A DNA stretch of 64,000 nucleotides. Origin: Naegleria gruberi. Lineage: Eukaryota. Position 1 is the first letter of the stretch. The number at the start of each line of letters is the position of its first letter. The translations under genes were made by a program, and so were the position numbers. The notes under the pieces are model-generated. The model saw only the letters and a program-made list of their open reading frames with translations, made no database searches and was not told the DNA's origin. The stretch is from assembly GCA_000004985.1 (NCBI GenBank), contig GG738854.1; one strand, 5' to 3'. Below are positions 36,122-45,489 of this stretch, in pieces.

Positions 36122-36422
36122 TTTTTTCTTCTATTGATGATGTTTAATCGGAGTCTTGTGATTTGTGAAGTTGGGAAGAATTGTAATTGATTATTTAGAG
36201 TTCTTGTTTTACGTATTGTACATCTATGCTCAACTGAGTGATATCAACAAGGCATCATGGTGTGTGATGATTGATTTGAAGGCTTCTTTTTGTCTTTAGA
36301 AAATTTGGAGGGAACAAAGAAAAAATAACGAAATATTAATATTGAGAGGAATCCAGTATTGTTAAATTTTATATTTATTGTTGACTTCTGTCTTGTTTTT
36401 AGTCATCATAGATTATTGGAAA

Positions 36423-39400
36423 ATGTCTTCATCAAATTTGGAACAATTGGAAAGTAGTTCTTCTTCTATGGCTCCTTCCATGCATAAATACGGAGCATGT
36501 ATTGAAGAATTTAATGCAAATATTTCATTTGGAAATTCTATCAAGTGGTGCAAGGATGAAAATTATATTGCCATGCAAACAAATAATACAGTATATATTA
36601 AGAATGTAATTAATGAAAAAAGAGGAACCATAGTATTGAACAAAGAATCGGAATCGGAAGATGGCACAGTAACAACAAGTCAAGAGCCTAATAGAACATC
36701 TACACACTTTAAAGACAGAACAGTCATACATCCGAGTATGTTTGTTCGTTTTTTACAATCATCTTTTAGATCGATATGTTGGAGTTCTCCGATTGAAAAT
36801 TATGAAACTTTTGAAATTACAAATGAAATTGGATGTTTAATATCATGTATTACAAGTGATAATAATTGCAGAATTTACAAGAGGCCAACCCAAGGATATA
36901 CCACAAATTGGGAGCTTGTTTGTGATGTTAGAGCCATTTTGCAAGATAATGACAAAATTCTTCTCTCAATTGAAAATGACAATGATGTCATCGTGACTCC
37001 ACAAGGAATTATTACAACAAATGGATTGGTCAATGAAGGTGAATTGATTACTAACAAGAAAACCAGAAATCATGTCTCTAAAAAGACATCTTCTGTTATG
37101 GGTTTGGAACAACAATTCTTTTCTCATTTCTACAAATCATTTACTGATGCATCTGGATTCGATCCAACAAAGCAGGAATATCAGGTTGGCTATAGAAAAT
37201 GGACAGATGAGGAACAAAAAATCTATGATAAGGTCTTGGAGAGTTCATTGGAATATTTCAAACCACAACTTGAGGAAAATTCACTTTCAACGGAAAGTCT
37301 CACTAAGAATTTGTATGTAAAACTGAGAACCAAAATGAGAAAGGATAAGGAAAAAGGAAAATTAACTGACACCAATATCAGTTCATCAACAAGAGAAACT
37401 AGAAGAACATCAACAGGATCTACAACTGAAGATCTTACCCAAGAAGATGTTGTAGAAACACCAGAAAAAAAGAGAAAAGAATCCCCATCTGAATCACAAC
37501 AACCAAAAAAGCTGAAAAGACTTTACTTTTCCAGAGGAGTTGCTAGAGCCAAAGACGAGGAGGTCAATCAGTCAGAGTATAACCATTGCCTTTATATTAC
37601 AGAACTTATGTGTTCAGACTTTTCCCAACCTTTCAAAAAGTCTATTGATGGAGCATTTAGACAATCTCTTTACATGGTGTGTGGATCTAAAACTGGTTTC
37701 TTATCTATCTTTGTTATTACCAACTTTGATAGAAAACTTGAAGTTGAACTTGTTGGTTATTCAAAGATTTTCTCTAATTTCATATCATTTGTGAAATTCC
37801 TCCCCTCTAGATCTGGTGATGAATTCTTTCGAATTGTTGTTGCAAGTTGTGAAGGTCAAATCAAAATTTTATCCATTCCTAAAAGCTACACTCAATCAAT
37901 TGAAAAACTAGACGATTTGGTAACTCCTAAAGAAATTTGTAAAGAGTACTCCTCATACTTTGAATCTGACAGTATCCCTCTTACAAGTTTGGAGACATTC
38001 TACGTTTCAAAGGATCAATCTAAAAAAGCGCTAGATGAAATGTACATGTGTTATTCGAAAGGCACGAATCTCTATGTGTGCAAATTTGAATTCCAAGATC
38101 AAGAAACTCTCTTGACTTGGCGAAAGAAATTTTCATGCCAAAACTTTACAATTTCTTCCATCTCGATGCAATACATAACAATTGACCGATCTGATAAGGA
38201 AAACAGTACTATTAATACCTTACTTGTATATACAACCTCTTTGGATGGAAGTCTTGTTCAGTGGAAGATTAATGAGGATACTACAGATGATGGATACACT
38301 TCAGTATATATTATTTCTAAAAATTTTGAATTACCAGTTTGGGGCTGTTCACTCTCTCCCAATAATGTTCAAATGGCTATTTCAGTTGAGAGACCTTCAA
38401 CCAGAGAAGTAAGAGCAGATTTGGAACATAGAAACAAGATTAGAATGTACATTCTCCCTCTATATTATCATGCCTTGAGAGCTATTTATCATATTCCTCA
38501 AACTGATCCAATTCCTTCACATTGTATTGTTGACTATTTCACAACTCTGTTGAGGAGAGGAATATTCAGAAAGCAACAAGCTTTTGATATTGCTGATTGT
38601 CTTTCCTCGAGTGATATGGTTGAGTACATTGAAAAGATTTTATCCAATGTATATGACACTGCCAATAATCTACCTCTGAAAAAGATTTTATACTTCATCT
38701 ATTCATGGATTTGTCGTGAGAAGAGTTATCCTCTCAGAGAAACTCTATTGGAACGAAAGGCCATCTTGGAAGAAGAATTGAGATATATTTATTCTGTGAC
38801 ACTCTTTGATATTCAATCTAAAAAGCAAGAAAAACCAAACTTGACTCAATATCTTCTCTGTGATTGGATCCTGCTGTACTATCAAGATTTTGTTGCTGAA
38901 CATTTTCCATCCAACAACCTTAATAATATGACTCCTTACATTCTCCAACAAGTGGCACAATTTTTACCAATCCTAGATTCTATAATCAAGACACTAAAGA
39001 ATGAAGATAATGCTGAGAAGAATTTGAAGGAAATTCAATTCGCTCAAAAACTCTTTGCATTATTTACTAGAGTATCGAACAAGGAAGATCATGCAGCAAG
39101 CATTTCGAATGAAATTATCAGTGAGACTAATTTCATCACTCCCCGAGATTCATGTTCTGTTTGTAAGCCAACAAGTGAAGAAAGATTTGTTCCAATTGTT
39201 TTTGGTTCCCAATTTTCACATGCCACTTGTTGTTCAACGAGAAAACATCCAATTGCTAGGGATGGTTTTACATTTGAGATCATCAGAGATGTTTATCAAA
39301 TGTTGGAGTGTTCTTGTTGTTGCCAACAGACAAGCCGTGATGGATTATTCTCTGTCTTGTACAGAAATTGTACTCAACATAATACTACTGCTGTTGTTGG

Positions 39401-39557
39401 AGGAGAAGAACAACATAATCAACCATCGGAAGAAGTTGTTGTTGATGAGAATTTGATGAGTCTGTTGTGTCCATCCCACAAGGATGTTCACATTGAAGCT
39501 TGTTCTTTTAAGATTGAATGTTGTTTGTGTGGTTCCTCTTTCAATGCAAAAGTTTGA
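36423..39557 (+). CDS. Large protein (1044 aa) with a C-terminal Cys-rich zinc-finger-like region; tentatively a TFIIIC subunit (tau90/GTF3C4-like)
   Basis: True ATG at 36423. N-terminal region with ..FRSICWSSPIENYETFEITNEIGCLISCITSDNNCRIY.. The C-terminus CSVCKPTSE..HATCCSTRKHPIARDGFTFEI..ECSCCCQQTS...CPSHKDVHIEACSFKIECCLCG resembles the zf-TFIIIC architecture. Assignment is tentative. Confidence 0.35.
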   Translation: MSSSNLEQLESSSSSMAPSMHKYGACIEEFNANISFGNSIKWCKDENYIAMQTNNTVYIKNVINEKRGTIVLNKESESEDGTVTTSQEPNRTSTHFKDRTVIHPSMFVRFLQSSFRSICWSSPIENYETFEITNEIGCLISCITSDNNCRIYKRPTQGYTTNWELVCDVRAILQDNDKILLSIENDNDVIVTPQGIITTNGLVNEGELITNKKTRNHVSKKTSSVMGLEQQFFSHFYKSFTDASGFDPTKQEYQVGYRKWTDEEQKIYDKVLESSLEYFKPQLEENSLSTESLTKNLYVKLRTKMRKDKEKGKLTDTNISSSTRETRRTSTGSTTEDLTQEDVVETPEKKRKESPSESQQPKKLKRLYFSRGVARAKDEEVNQSEYNHCLYITELMCSDFSQPFKKSIDGAFRQSLYMVCGSKTGFLSIFVITNFDRKLEVELVGYSKIFSNFISFVKFLPSRSGDEFFRIVVASCEGQIKILSIPKSYTQSIEKLDDLVTPKEICKEYSSYFESDSIPLTSLETFYVSKDQSKKALDEMYMCYSKGTNLYVCKFEFQDQETLLTWRKKFSCQNFTISSISMQYITIDRSDKENSTINTLLVYTTSLDGSLVQWKINEDTTDDGYTSVYIISKNFELPVWGCSLSPNNVQMAISVERPSTREVRADLEHRNKIRMYILPLYYHALRAIYHIPQTDPIPSHCIVDYFTTLLRRGIFRKQQAFDIADCLSSSDMVEYIEKILSNVYDTANNLPLKKILYFIYSWICREKSYPLRETLLERKAILEEELRYIYSVTLFDIQSKKQEKPNLTQYLLCDWILLYYQDFVAEHFPSNNLNNMTPYILQQVAQFLPILDSIIKTLKNEDNAEKNLKEIQFAQKLFALFTRVSNKEDHAASISNEIISETNFITPRDSCSVCKPTSEERFVPIVFGSQFSHATCCSTRKHPIARDGFTFEIIRDVYQMLECSCCCQQTSRDGLFSVLYRNCTQHNTTAVVGGEEQHNQPSEEVVVDENLMSLLCPSHKDVHIEACSFKIECCLCGSSFNAKV

Positions 39558-39753: not shown

Positions 39754-40536
39754 ATGGGTAAGAGAATTAGAGCTCAAAGAAAGGGTAACGGTGCTGGTCC
39801 ATACAAGACTAGATCTATCTACAAGATCGCCAAACCACAATACAGACATTTGGACTACTCTGAAAGAGAAGGTTTCATGAAGGGTGTCGTTAGACAAATC
39901 GTTCACGAACCAGGTCGTGGTGCTCCATTGGCTGAAGTTGCCTTCAGACATCCATTGAAGCCAAAGAAGGATATCCAATACTTCCTTGCTCCAGAAGGTT
40001 TATATACTGGTCAATTCGTTTTCTGCGGTCAAAAGGCTGAATTGAAGATTGGTAACGTCCTCCCAATTGGTAACTTGCCAGAAGGTACTGTCTGTTGTAA
40101 CGTTGAAAGAAAGACTGGTGATAGAGGTGCATTGGCTAGAGCTGCTGGTGAATCCGCTGTTATTATTGCCCACTCTGAAGATGGTAAGACTAGAGTTAAG
40201 CTCCCATCTGGTGTCAAGAAGACTCTCCCATCCGATAACAGAGCTACCATTGGTGTTATTGCCTGTGGTGGTAAGACTGAAAGACCTGTCTTGAAGGCTT
40301 CAACCAATTACTTCAGATTCAAGGCTAAGGGTAGAAAGCAATGGCCAAGAGTTAGAGGTGTTGCCATGAACCCTGTTGAACATCCACACGGTGGTGGTAA
40401 CCATCAACACATTGGTAAGCCATCTACTGTTTCCAGATTGACACCTGCCGGTAGAAAGGTCGGTTTGATCGGTGCCAGAAGAACTGGTAGAATTAGAGGT
40501 GGTAAGGCCAACGTCAACCAAGTTGAAAAGGATTAA
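39754..40536 (+). CDS. RPL8: 60S ribosomal protein L8 (uL2)
   Basis: 260 aa, near-universal uL2 sequence (..GRGAPLA.., ..[11 protein letters not shown].., ..[22 protein letters not shown]..). Strongly biased codons (GGT, AAG, AGA, CCA, GCT, TTG) indicate high expression. Confidence 0.95.
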
Positions 40537-40751
40537 ATTTAAAGCTCCAAACCCTATTAAACAAAAAAATTATCTTAAAAAACAATTATCTGTGTTATTT
40601 ATTTTCAAAAACAATAACGATTACTATCCCAACTTAGTTTCAACTTTGTTTTTAGCCTACTAATACCTTGCTTGACAAAGGTTTACATGATTTTTCTAAG
40701 GGAAAAGCATAATATTTTAAATTGTTTAGAATAAATAAGATACTTGTAATT

Positions 40752-41709
40752 TTATTGACAACACTTTTTCTTTTCCTTTGGTTTGGTGTTGGTTTCTTGA
40801 TTGAGATTGACTTTGGTTGTGGTTGGTTCTGTAGGGGGTGTTTGTTGTGGAGTGGTTTCATCATTTTGAGCTTGTTCGAGTTTGTTATAATAATCAATGG
40901 CTATGGTTTGGAAAACTAAACATGATGATTAAAATTTGAGAAGGGTAATAATGTGATAACTTACTTTCCTTAACATTCAAATTTTCTTTCACACTAGCTC
41001 TGAAAAATTTAATACCCAACTCTGTGGCAAGTACTTCTGCTTCTGAACTATTGAAATGTGTCAAATAAAAATTCGAAATAAACTTACGGCTGTATGACAG
41101 CTTGGTCTATCAAATCAATCTTATTTTGAATTAAAACTTTACATAAATTAGTGTCGTCACATTGAGTATCCACTTTTTCATTCCAAGCTTTGATGGCTTC
41201 GAAACTTCTACGATCAGTTGTTGAAAATACCAGAATGGCTCCTTTGGCTCCTCTATAGTATTGTCTGGTCATGTCAGCAAATTCTAAATTCCACACACAA
41301 AATTAGTTTTCATTAATTAAATATATTTACCTTCCTAAAATAATACAGTTATTAATTACTCAACATTCCAATATCGTTTTTTGATAAACTTACTTGTCCA
41401 GCAGTGTCCCACAACATGAAAGTTACTATTTATCAATTAAAAGTTTGATGAAATTAAAAGGTTTGATGAAGGCAAGTCATTAAAAATCCATCAAATATTA
41501 ATTCCATTCTACATACCTGCCTCGTTTATAGGATCGGGTATATATTGTTGTTTTTCTTTGAAAGCAACTCCAATAGTTTGTCTATAATCAGGATCATATT
41601 TTGAATCGACAAATCTTCGGACCAAACTGGTTTTACCAACTTGACCGTCTCCAACAATAATTACTTTCATATGTTCTGTTATTATTTTCCAAATATAACA
41701 ATTGTTCAT
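40752..41709 (-). CDS. RAB23: Rab23-like small GTPase, 6 exons including a 4-nt micro-exon
   Basis: Exons are 41709..41517, 41425..41394, 41334..41331 (GAAG), 41283..41088, 41047..40965 and about 40914..40752. Introns are 91, 59, 47, 40 and about 50 nt (GTATGT, GTAAGT, GTAAAT, GTAAGT, GTAAGT donors). Product is ..[90 protein letters not shown]...KKKCCQ*. Close to Rab23 ([34 protein letters not shown]..). C-terminal CC prenylation motif. Confidence 0.75.
41331..41334 (-). CDS. 4-nt coding micro-exon (GAAG) of the Rab23-like gene
   Basis: Flanked by a canonical acceptor (tattttag|GAAG) and donor (GAAG|gtaaatat). It is needed to connect phase-0 exon 2 (..WDTAGQ) to phase-1 exon 3 (aa ttt gct..) and it generates the conserved QEEF of switch II. 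Confidence 0.65.
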
Positions 41710-42604
41710 AATAGTTTCATGGTTATCATTGAATATTCAATTTAAATTTGATCATCATCGTTAATTCCACATCATCACAATAATGAAAATTAATATTAAT
41801 GAATTAAATATAATGCGATTCGAATCATCATCATGCTGGTGGCTATCAAAAACCTACTCTCTAATTCCTCCATTTTTTTATATAGCTAATAGGTGTTCTT
41901 TGTCAGTGTGTGTTGATAGTTGTTGTTGTATTGAATTTATTCTACGGCTAGTGATGTTTTACTACTTTTTCTGATGAAGATTTGGCTCTGTAATAAAATC
42001 CCTCCAAAGAAGCAGCTGAATTTGCACAATAAAAAAAAGCGCGCCACAAGTGTAATCAAACATCAATCGTCGCCACTCAGCCAGGTAAAGTAAGGTATAA
42101 ACAAATGAATGAAACAGAGATTGTTATTTGACTATTAATCCAAGTAATGAAAGAATTAAAGATAATGTCATCTTTGAGTAGATGTTAATAGATATATTGA
42201 TGGTGGGAAAATTTCCTTATTATACTTTTAATGGCAAATATTTGAGATGAATATTTTGAGGATTGAATGGTAATTTAAGGTTAGAATGACAAATTTGTTC
42301 ATCAAAAGAAGAAGGGGCAATGGCAACCTATTACCATGATAGTGCACTTAATAATTGGCCAAATACTCCAGTTGGAAATTTCTCATCTTGATTCCGAAAT
42401 TCAATCATCATAATAATGTATTCAAAATTTATTATATTTTATAGTTCATACTAGCTAGAGAATTGTCATCCCGTAAATGACATTATTGATGTGGATGTGT
42501 GTAACAATGTACAATATATTATTTACATTAGTAATATATTTTCTATTACTACTAAATTACTATTCGATTTCGAATAAATGGTATTAGATAAAGATAATAC
42601 TATT

Positions 42605-42985
42605 CTAATTGAACATATTTGGGTCAGTAGCCTTGACGAAACTCTTGACAGGACTCTTGAAAGCATGAGTCAATTTGTTTATCGACTCTATCCAAACATT
42701 CCTTTCATTTTCCGATTCGGCATAAATCTGATAATCTCTACCAAGATTTGTCTTGACCAAGAATTCATAATAATTCTTTCCTTTGATATTTTCTACATTA
42801 CCAGTATTCTCAGCACATACAATAAGTCTCAGATAAATTCTATCAATAGGAGGAGCACTAGTCGATGAAACATCATCGAAATAGGCCAATTCCTCATCGG
42901 TCAGAATGAGCCATCTCTTCTTTGTCGACTTGAACAACCCTCCCTTCTTGAAGATGTATCCACTTCTATGTGTTTTAATAGCCAT
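42605..42985 (-). CDS. Small PH-domain protein (126 aa)
   Basis: ATG at 42985. GYIFKKGGLFKSTKKRWLILTDEELAYF..(beta strands)..ERNVWIESINKL matches the PH-domain fold pattern. Confidence 0.55.
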   Translation of the reverse strand: MAIKTHRSGYIFKKGGLFKSTKKRWLILTDEELAYFDDVSSTSAPPIDRIYLRLIVCAENTGNVENIKGKNYYEFLVKTNLGRDYQIYAESENERNVWIESINKLTHAFKSPVKSFVKATDPNMFN

Positions 42986-43529
42986 GTTGTTTGTGTTCGG
43001 TCTTTGTTCTTTGTATTTTGGAAAAAGAGGTGACAGTATTCCAGTGTTTACTACAAAGGTGTTGTGTTCTTTTTTCTGTTGAAATGAAGAAGTGATGTGG
43101 TCTGCTCTTTCGTAATGTTGAGAAACAGAAATAGCAAATTCTGCAATTCTCGAAGTTGACTGGATATTTTGGGAAGTGTTTGGTTAGACTTGGAAGAATC
43201 TGTCACAATATTGATATTGAGCAAGGTGGTGGGTTATCTATTGAATGTTAATAAACTCAAGATGATTCGGCTGGTATTTAAACTCAATATTTAATTTTAA
43301 AAAATGTCAAAAGTGTTCATAAAATGTTAGACTTGTCATTTCATAGGAGCTTTCAATGACATCCTTAAACAGCTAGACATTCCATATTTATTTTTTTGAG
43401 AATTTTGAATTCTCATTGTTATTTCATCATCTACAGCCTTTAACTAATACTTCCAGAACAGTATTTATTAATACAATTGATTTATTCAATATAGTATTAA
43501 TTTTTTTAATTATTGCAAATTTAAAAAAA

Positions 43530-44513
43530 ATGAATGAAAATGAATCGAGCCAATTTGATGAAATTCAAGTATTGCAATCAATGTACACTACCGAAGAATT
43601 AAAACCTCGGACGGGAATGGATAGATGTTGGCTCATTCCGATAAATGTTAATAATAATATTGATGATGATGAAACGACAGGATTGTTGGATTGTTTGGTT
43701 TTTGAATTTTGGTTTCATAGAAATTATCCTTCTGAATCGGAACCATTCTTTGAATTGAAAGGAGCTAAAAATTGGATTAATTTACCATATAATCAATTTA
43801 AGAATAATAACTATTTTGCTCAATCGGGATTGGATGAATTGGATAAAATTACTATAAAGGAGGCTCTGCAGATGGAGTTAAAGGCCATGTTCTCTCTTGG
43901 AGTACCAATTGCTTTTACTTGGATTGAGTTTTTGAGAAATGATTTATCGAACATGTTGGACGTAAATGAGATTTATAATCATGTTAAATTGAATCAAAAG
44001 GTTGTATCAATTCAACCAAATTCAAGAAAGTCTAACGAGGATAAAATCTCAACAAGGGTATTGGATATTATTCATGGGGAATCATTCACAGAAAAGAAAT
44101 CCAAATTTGTTGGACATGTGGCAATTGTAAAATCTTTGGAAGATGTCAACTTGATGCTGTCTCAATTATTGGAAGATGATAAAGTGGCAAATGCTACTCA
44201 CAACATTTATGCATATAGAATACGGCAAGGTGATCAAATTTTGGAAAATAGAGATGACGATGGAGAGACTGGAGCTGCTGATCAAATTCTTTATCTGATG
44301 CAAATCTCCAATGCAGAGAATGTATGCTGTGTGGTGACAAGATGGTATGGTGGTATAAAATTGGGAGCAGATAGATTCAGAGTAAGTAGTTCATTTCTAA
44401 TTGTTCATTGAACTAGGTTATCCATGATGAAACAATGAAAATTGAAATAGATCATTACAAACGTTGCCAAAAAAGTACTGCAGGATAATAACTTTATTGC
44501 TACGAGAAAGTAA
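43530..44513 (+). CDS. IMPACT: IMPACT/Yih1 homologue (RWD plus UPF0029 domains), 2 exons
   Basis: Exon 1 is 43530..44381 (aaaaaaaATG). The intron is 44382..44450 (69 nt, GTAAGT..AAATAG, phase 0). Exon 2 is 44451..44513. RWD-like N-terminus (EIQVLQSMYTTEEL..). UPF0029 core GHVAIVKSLEDVNLMLSQLLEDDKVANATHNIYAYRI...TGAADQILYLMQ..VVTRWYGGIKLGADRFR|IITNVAKKVLQDNNFIATRK*. Confidence 0.75.
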
Positions 44514-44628
44514 TCATTTCCATTGCAGCAATCGAAACATTTTGATTTCTTCTAGATTTCATCAAGATAATGATTTTGATCTTTTCAATTTCCCGCCTTT
44601 TTTTATTTGTTTTTAACTTGAATAAAAA

Positions 44629-45489
44629 ATGAGTCAAAGCCCACCTTCTGTTACATCCTCTATTGAAAACCAATTTTTGGATGACCAAATCTTTATCGGA
44701 GTCAGTGGTATGATTGGTTCAGGTGAGTATAATATCAATTTCGTCTGTTGTTTAACAATAATTTAATTAATAATAGGAAAGGTAAATATTTAGCCTATTT
44801 TTGTAAATTCATAAAATCAATATTCTTTAGACCACTCTCGCTAAAGCACTCGCTGAAAAGATTGGAGTTGGAGTACATTATGAACCAGTTATTGATAATT
44901 CCTACTTGGCTGATTTTTATTCTGATATGAAGACTTATTCTTTCCGTTTGCAAGTTTATTTGTTGAATAAGAGATTCGAACAACACCAGAAAATTATTTG
45001 GGGATCAAATGGAGGAGTTCAAGATAGAACTATCTATGAAGATGCTATCTTTGCCAAGGTTTTGATGGATACTGGAATGATGGAAAAGAGAGATTATGAA
45101 ACCTATGTTTCCCTTTTCAGAAACATGTCGAAGGTATGTTGTTATTGTGGTGATTTTTAATGAAGCCTTTTATGTTAAAATAGTTTATGAAACACAATAC
45201 AATGATTATTCACTTGGATGTTTCTCCAGAAACAAGCATGGAAAGAATCAAGATGAGAGGAAGAGAATGTGAAAGTGGAATTACTCTCGAATATCTTCAA
45301 AAGTTGCATAGTGGATATGAAGAATGGCTCACCAAGATTTCAAAGATTATTCCAGTTATTAAGGTTAATTGGAGTCAATTCAGAAGTCTTGAAAATGTTT
45401 TGGAAGAAGTTATGAAAGCCTATAATCAAATTCAAAATATTCAACATGTTACTTTTGAAAATAAGGATACCAGCAGTACAGTTCTCTAA
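44629..45489 (+). CDS. Deoxyribonucleoside kinase (dCK/dGK/TK2 family), 4 exons including a 5-nt micro-exon
   Basis: Exons are 44629..44722, 44777..44781 (GAAAG), 44831..45133 and 45184..45489. Introns are 54, 49 and 50 nt (GTGAGT, GTAAAT, GTATGT donors). Spliced product is ..IFIGVSGMIGSGKTTLAKALAEKIGVGVHYEPV...GGVQDRTIYEDAIFAKV...RIKMRGRECESGITLEYLQKL.. It shows the P-loop, the ERS-like DRTIYED motif and the Arg-rich lid typical of dNKs. About 236 aa. Confidence 0.75.
44777..44781 (+). CDS. 5-nt coding micro-exon (GAAAG) of the deoxynucleoside kinase gene
   Basis: taataatag|GAAAG|gtaaatat. Joining ggt tca g + ga aag + acc act gives G-S-G-K-T-T, the Walker-A/P-loop. A single-intron model shifts the frame into a stop. 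Confidence 0.7.

Follow-up and report, generated by a model that had tools for sequence, protein, structure and literature searches.

A 4-base coding exon that probably restores the conserved switch II of Rab23 in the amoeba Naegleria gruberi

Introduction

How is a GTPase gene read when two of its exons do not fit together? In the Rab23-like gene of Naegleria gruberi, exon 2 ends in phase 0, directly after the residues WDTAGQ of switch II, and the next long exon needs one base carried in from upstream to be read as EFADM. A sequence-only reading of this locus had proposed that a 4-nt coding exon, GAAG, lies between the two.

Ultra-short exons are known in animals as well as in plants and fungi. 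The APC11 gene of Arabidopsis contains a 1-nt exon (PMC4674806). In ten plants, 2,398 exons of at most 15 nt were found, mostly unannotated and often within conserved domains (PMC8831610). In Fusarium, assembly of CYP621A is reported to require a 1-nt exon (PMC12940212). Rab23 itself has been associated with flagellated taxa, including N. gruberi (PMC3138460).

Here we analyze the locus within a window of 64,000 nucleotides (the whole stretch of DNA that was examined, from contig GG738854.1, assembly GCA_000004985.1). We find that the Rab23 gene of this amoeba very probably contains the 4-base coding exon GAAG, which would restore the switch-II motif QEEF. The result is a three-fold correction of an annotation and a new lineage for a known type of exon, not a new mechanism.

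Results

A candidate micro-exon between exon 2 and exon 4

The gene is encoded by the minus strand. Its exon 2 ends at 41394 with the codons TGG GAC ACT GCT GGA CAA, followed by gtaagt. Exon 4 begins at 41283 with AATTTGCT (AATTTGCTGAC). Between them, at 41336-41325, we find tattttAG^GAAG^GTaaat (carets mark exon-intron boundaries), so that an AG acceptor stands before GAAG and a GT donor after it; the bases on its 5' side are gtattattttag and those on its 3' side are gtaaatat. The conceptual splice GGACAA-GAAG-AATTT yields a normal Rab23 switch II (WDTAGQEEF), and the full spliced coding sequence is open, with 217 aa and one terminal stop. The sequence-only reading was right about the position and the bases of GAAG, and conceptual splicing confirmed its argument from phase, in which exon 2 ends in phase 0, the next exon is in phase 1 and GAAG resolves the frame.

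We enumerated the one- and two-intron GT/GC-AG models of the region exhaustively. Among the two-intron GT-AG models with an internal exon of at most 30 nt, GAAG alone yields QEEF together with a complete exon 4. Skipping GAAG produces QNLLT*, and an early stop also follows when intron 2 or intron 3 is retained; thus, only the doubly spliced mRNA would be productive. The two flanking introns measure 59 and 47 nt, versus 40-182 nt for the other introns of the gene, and both have GT..AG ends and a T-rich 3' end. Branch-like motifs can be read in both of them (TAATAAC in intron 2, ACTAAT in intron 3), 15-20 nt before the acceptors. We predict that GAAG is present in the mature mRNA. The predicted junction of the micro-exon form contains GGACAAGAAGAATTTGCT, and the 30-mer across it is CTGCTGGACAAGAAGAATTTGCTGACATGA; the corresponding 30-mer of the skipped, unproductive form is ACTGCTGGACAAAATTTGCTGACATGACCA.

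The corrected gene has seven exons and six introns of 182, 91, 59, 47, 40, and 49 nt (Table 1). Its donors are, in order, GTAGGT, GTATGT, GTAAGT, GTAAAT, GTAAGT, and GTAAGT, and its acceptors are CAG once and TAG five times.

Table 1. Features of the Rab23 gene and of its surroundings, in window coordinates
Feature	Position	Strand	Length	Description
1059-aa ORF	36378-39557	+		single uninterrupted ORF, no Pfam match
Ribosomal protein uL2	39754-40536	+		single uninterrupted ORF
Last exon	40752..40915	-		ends KEKKKCCQ + TAA, prenylation-type CC motif
Intron 5	40916..40964	-	49 nt	GTAAGT..GTTTAG; orthologues splice here, public model reads through
Exon 5	40965..41047	-	83 nt	
Intron 4	41048..41087	-	40 nt	GTAAGT..CAATAG
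Exon 4	41088..41283	-	196 nt	(E)FADMTRQYY...AVIQP; 98.6% amino-acid identity to N. lovaniensis (tblastx)
Intron 3	41284..41330	-	47 nt	GTAAAT..GAATTTAG, phase 1; ACTAAT ~20 nt from 3' end (putative branch site); all Naegleria
Micro-exon GAAG (predicted)	41331..41334	-	4 nt	Glu codon + first base of second Glu codon
Intron 2	41335..41393	-	59 nt	GTAAGT..TATTTTAG; TAATAAC ~15 nt from 3' end (putative branch site); N. gruberi lineage only
Rival donor GTTTAT	41384..41389	-		used by public model; gives QVKF
Exon 2	41394..41425	-	32 nt	ends phase 0
Intron 1	41426..41516	-	91 nt	GTATGT..AAATAG; position common to all Naegleria loci
Exon 1	41517..41675	-		P-loop to PINEA, ends phase 1; 94% identity to N. 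lovaniensis (tblastx)
Intron 0	41676..41857	-	182 nt	GTAGGT..AACAG; same position in N. lovaniensis, N. fowleri, Willaertia
Probable first coding exon	41858..41873	-	16 nt	ATGGAGGAATTAGAGA = MEELE + 1 nt; then gtaggt
Small PH-domain protein	42605-42985	-		single uninterrupted ORF
RWD/UPF0029 (IMPACT-like) protein	43416-44411	+		single uninterrupted ORF

The public gene model

The public model of this gene, XP_002680325.1 (NAEGRDRAFT_31544, 179 aa), passes through the same region in another way. We reproduced it exactly from the window by splicing from position 41389 (donor gtaa^GTTTAT) into the acceptor at 41284 and reading through the last intron. The join is in frame, leaves the length of the protein unchanged and gives QVKF; it places GGACAAGTAA directly before AATTTGCT (predicted 30-mer, CTGCTGGACAAGTAAAATTTGCTGACATGA). 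A second in-frame single-intron GT-AG model uses a donor at 41359 and inserts 11 residues. Because the donor at 41389 is in frame and reproduces the public model, the earlier claim that any single-intron model gives a stop or drops a residue was wrong.

The public annotation could thus be correct: one canonical GT-AG intron of 106 nt, a QVKF switch II and an AG-GAAG-GT inside the intron by coincidence, with no unusual exon needed. We consider this very unlikely. At its 3' end the same model is demonstrably in error: the last 49-nt intron is left unspliced and the protein ends SKLSHYYPSQILIIMFSFPNHSH in place of the conserved form IFQTIAIDYY...KKKCCQ, without the prenylation cysteines. It is probably wrong at its 5' end as well, lacking the 16-nt first coding exon that would encode MEELE-. 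Counterparts of this exon (ATGGAnGAnnTnGAGA/GAAA followed by gta(a/g)gt) are found in N. lovaniensis, N. fowleri, the Naegleria locus L003 and Willaertia. In N. gruberi the exon would give MEELEKHM, parallel to MDEVEKHM; the N-termini in N. lovaniensis, N. fowleri and Willaertia read MDEVE, MDEIE or MDELE.

The bases of the candidate micro-exon end exon 2 in other Naegleria

The sequence-only reading had named a comparison with Rab23 orthologues in related genomes as a check on the micro-exon, and this comparison was run. We used two N. fowleri loci (L002, plus L006 of a Logan assembly), the N. lovaniensis locus (L001) and those of two metagenomic Naegleria lineages (one represented by L003, L004 and L005, the other by L039), together with Willaertia magna (L040), Acrasis kona (L037), and an acrasid-like contig (L035). 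The last of these was reached by a homology search with the exon-4 peptide alone, which returned four candidates and missed the identical N. lovaniensis protein. A scan of metagenome contigs for relatives recovered distant Rab23 loci only and no further Naegleria lineage. The N. gruberi type is represented by one lineage, the window and a 99.2% identical environmental contig (L038). In exon DNA, the four other Naegleria lineages differ by 13-18% from N. gruberi and from each other, except that N. fowleri and N. lovaniensis differ by 3%.

All four of these lineages read GGA CAR GAR G^gt..ag^AR TTT GCN GAY ATG. In N. lovaniensis, N. fowleri, L003-L005 and L039, exon 2 ends with the 4 nt GAAG (GAGG in N. 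fowleri), and the phase-1 intron that follows GARG occupies the exact position of the 47-nt intron of N. gruberi. The junctions are GGACAAGAAG^gtacgt..tag^AATTTGCT in N. lovaniensis, CAAGAGG^gtaagt..tag^AGTTTGCT in N. fowleri, CAAGAAG^gtatgt..ttag^AATTTGCG in L003, and CAGGAAG^gttagt..cag^AGTTTGCT in L039. The sole difference of N. gruberi from the other Naegleria here is an extra 59-nt GT..AG segment between CAA and GAAG. The orthologue structures match what the micro-exon model predicts. The QVKF model leaves them an unexplained coincidence, one that would have to copy base for base the GAAG^gt junction found in sister species.

Conservation of switch II and identity of the product

The spliced product matches Pfam Ras with 169 bits over residues 9-169, and the P-loop, switch I/II and NKID are present. 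The score is 169.2 bits with QEEF versus 164.0 bits with QVKF. The best matches among solved structures in the PDB are Rab23 chains, with 163-174 bits, while Rab35, Rab1 and Sec4 reach at most 126 bits; the named database matches are almost all Rab-23. The product thus appears closer to Rab23 than to other Rab subfamilies, an assignment by PDB scores and named matches. In the comparison with human and mouse Rab23 (PDB 9rs9, 8yim, 1z22), it aligns with the human protein across the GTPase domain from end to end, and one stretch of 11 residues is identical between the two. It differs in ending with CCQ after a short tail rich in Thr, Pro and Lys, and its function in Naegleria is a putative one.

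The nearest protein is that of N. lovaniensis (87%), whose 90% cluster also holds the N. fowleri protein and XP_002680325.1. Identity to orthologues is 87-88% over the whole protein, and the full product is colinear with them to the CC terminus, where prenylation-type cysteines stand in KKKCCQ here, in CCN in N. lovaniensis and in CCQ in Willaertia. No match was obtained when four full-length variants (either N-terminus, with QEEF or with QVKF) and the exon-4 ORFs were looked up exactly, no transcript-derived N. gruberi sequence turned up in the protein and contig collections searched, and a full-length homology search returned the public model as the only protein of the N. gruberi type. With this single N. 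gruberi match, the species apparently has one Rab23 gene.

We counted the motif in 122 sequences containing D[TS]AG; with the public N. gruberi model set aside, 121 homologues remain. QEEF occurs in 115 of the 121, QDEF in two, and QEEY, QEVF and QEQF in one each; the remaining one is an evident mis-model. An acidic residue follows the Gln in 120 of the 121 homologues. QVKF is confined to the public N. gruberi model (0/121 elsewhere), where it takes the place of two residues, acidic or near-invariant in 120/121 homologues. As the rest of the GTPase is frozen (exon 4 is 98.6% identical), a switch II without both glutamates is implausible. The proposal that GAAG restores the Rab23-type QEEF is thus backed both by the exon 2 ends of the four other Naegleria lineages (GARG) and by the motif counts (QEEF, 115/121).

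Chance, sequence quality, and splice donors

AGGARGGT occurs five times in 128 kb (both strands), versus 2.6 times expected from shuffles. In a first-order Markov simulation, the probability of finding AG-GARG-GT within 110 nt, placed so that each sub-intron measures 35 nt or more, was ~6e-4. The AG-GAAG-GT arrangement is more than chance, and the public single intron needs exactly this ~6e-4 coincidence.

The environmental metagenome contig L038 (ENA ERZ929261, run ERR1078381) is 99.2% identical to window positions 41174-42529 over 1356 nt. The 8 substitutions and 2 indels that separate them all lie in the 5' flank and the first intron, upstream of exon 1. Because the micro-exon region is identical in this independent contig, an assembly artefact is excluded, and we rejected the reading of the locus as an assembly error. 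L038 also indicates that a very close N. gruberi strain was present in the sampled environment.

We assembled a set of splice donors from the Rab23 gene in six heterolobosean loci; after removal of 7 regex matches within coding sequence, 26 donors remained. A heuristic intron finder that joins ORFs was tried as a source of donors and was too noisy to give a clean set, and the gene's own introns were used instead. A stands at +3 in 25/26 donors, G at +5 and T at +6 in 26/26, and GTANGT is found in 25/26. The upstream donor GTAAGT (41393) is a perfect match to this consensus. Across the window GTAAGT shows no enrichment over a Markov model, owing to the low number of introns in the genome. The rival donor GTTTAT mismatches the consensus at +3 and +5, and the public single intron would ignore the perfect GTAAGT 4 nt upstream of it.

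GAAG had been described as flanked by perfect splice signals. Both are present (acceptor tattttag, donor gtaaatat), but the donor GTAAAT (41325-41330, minus strand) has A and not G at +5, unlike all 26 comparison donors. This weak donor is the one sequence-level weakness of the micro-exon model, and it is partly offset by the AAG with which the exon ends.

The sub-consensus +5 position raises the possibility of a mixed output, in which GAAG is included in part of the transcripts and the rest is skipped (QNLLT*) or spliced at GTTTAT, a leaky or regulated step that would lower Rab23 output. Skipping GAAG or retaining either intron would indeed end in an early stop, and some plant ultra-short exons coexist with alternative isoforms (PMC8831610). 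We regard such a mixture as unlikely. The sequence does not require it, as both introns have good ends and normal sizes. Moreover, N. gruberi apparently has only one Rab23 gene, so productive splicing must be at least common.

Could the frame problem instead be a lesion in a decaying pseudogene? The direct join of GTAAGT to TAG does give a stop, and the gene neighbours are unlike those of N. lovaniensis and N. fowleri. In these two species and in the L003 lineage, a large TOG-domain (XMAP215/CLASP) gene adjoins Rab23; the neighbour on the opposite flank is a P-type cation ATPase in N. lovaniensis, N. fowleri and L006. Within positions 40000-45000 of the N. gruberi window, neither a TOG-domain gene nor a P-type ATPase is adjacent, and local gene order is not conserved; orthology thus rests on sequence (87-88% identity and the single N. 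gruberi match). We rejected the pseudogene reading as extremely improbable. All other exons are open and encode a protein nearly identical to those of orthologues ~15% different in DNA, every splice site is intact, and this is the sole N. gruberi Rab23 found. The gene is intact, under strong constraint and colinear to the CC terminus. With 6 introns in 1.1 kb, it is intron-rich compared to its apparently intronless neighbours.

The 59-nt intron is seen in N. gruberi only

The 59-nt intron was found in N. gruberi only (the window and L038). Its position is empty in N. lovaniensis, N. fowleri, L003-L005, L039, Willaertia, Acrasis, L035, Chlamydomonas and Lottia, and also in eleven metagenomic Rab23 loci. 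With this distribution, a lineage-specific gain is the simplest reading, and we infer that the intron would have been gained rather than repeatedly lost. The window holds no other copies of it, hence no sign of an introner-type element. When it was aligned locally with the 47-nt intron, the score was reached by 30% of shuffles, which gives no sign of an origin by tandem duplication.

Five intron positions fall within ~22 nt of the sequence coding for WDTAGQEE (TGG GAY ACN GCN GGN CAR GAR GAR): TGG^GAT in the L003 group of Naegleria, ACNG^CTGG in Willaertia and Chlamydomonas, GG^ACAA in Acrasis kona and L035, CAA^GAAG in N. gruberi, and GARG^AR in all Naegleria. This cluster is unusually dense and lineage-specific, in a perfectly conserved coding stretch. 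That the 4-nt exon arose through a recent gain of an intron, specific to this lineage, within this 22-nt stretch of switch II is a proposal that we hold to be evenly balanced.

The extra intron of L003 (2875-2968; also in L004 and L005), at TGG^GAT, would leave exons of 17 nt (TAACGTTCATGTTGTGG) and 19 nt (GATACTGCCGGACAAGAAG). It is a precedent within the genus and supports the micro-exon reading.

Discussion

How could two introns be removed from either side of 4 nt? In the scheme that we propose, an older phase-1 intron followed CAAGAAG, and a younger 59-nt phase-0 intron came to lie between CAA and GAAG, which would thereby have been isolated as an exon. Most likely, both introns would be recognized singly, each as a whole (intron definition), and then removed sequentially. 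A spacing of 4 nt leaves little room for U1 at the downstream donor and U2AF/U2 at the upstream acceptor to be bound together, hence the sequential removal. Intron definition is the likeliest mode because both introns are short, begin with GT and end with AG, are T-rich at the 3' end and carry a branch-like TAAC or CTAAT. The strong 59-nt intron (GTAAGT...TTTTAG) may leave first, generating CAAGAAG^GTAAAT, the exon context in which the older donor is found in the sister species. The order of splicing and the branch sites in this scheme are putative. If RNA confirms the micro-exon, it would be direct evidence of strict intron definition by the Naegleria spliceosome.

The proposed exon has close counterparts. 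Plant micro-exons of 1-15 nt, among them the 1-nt exons of APC11 and VPS55, are likewise few-base coding exons between canonical introns in conserved regions (PMC4674806, PMC8831610). Like GAAG, they are missed or mis-modelled by annotation, and relatives carry the same bases within a larger neighbouring exon (PMC8831610). They differ in having been validated by RNA-seq or RT-PCR and in being conserved over long spans, while GAAG is predicted from DNA alone, appears young (one Naegleria lineage) and belongs to a heterolobosean protist with few, very short introns. With Fusarium CYP621A, the likeness is that only inclusion of the exon restores a conserved protein and that the gene model was corrected by comparison with orthologues; the difference is that the gene is a fungal P450 and the exon 1 nt rather than 4 nt long (PMC12940212).

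A further comparison is recursive splicing. It takes place at AG^GT ratchet points, with zero-length exons and spans of tens of kilobases. The scheme proposed here resembles it in the stepwise removal through an internal 3' splice site that lies directly before a regenerated 5' splice site. It differs in that 4 coding nucleotides are predicted to be kept in the mRNA and in that the total span is 110 nt.

A literature search combining Naegleria and microexon gave nothing relevant, and a full-text search for the QEEF- or QVKF-form peptide found no paper quoting either. As far as our literature search found, GAAG would be, if confirmed by RNA, the first ultra-short constitutive exon documented in Heterolobosea/Discoba.

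XP_002680325.1 would be wrong in three places, with QVKF in the catalytic switch II, the first coding exon missing and the prenylation site lost. Such errors pass into phylogenetic, structural and cell-biological uses, such as work on Rab23 during the amoeba-to-flagellate transition.

More generally, a protist lineage that is neither plant, animal nor fungus may possess exons too short for gene finders and read mappers to detect. DNA sequence alone can reveal them, provided that a frame problem comes after a strong donor and that sister species contain the bases that are lacking. The contrast between two introns 4 nt apart in N. gruberi and one in four sister lineages offers a clean natural experiment for the study of intron gain and of how tightly splice sites can be packed. 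If confirmed by RNA, the micro-exon would mean that intron gain is ongoing in Naegleria, in an otherwise intron-poor genome.
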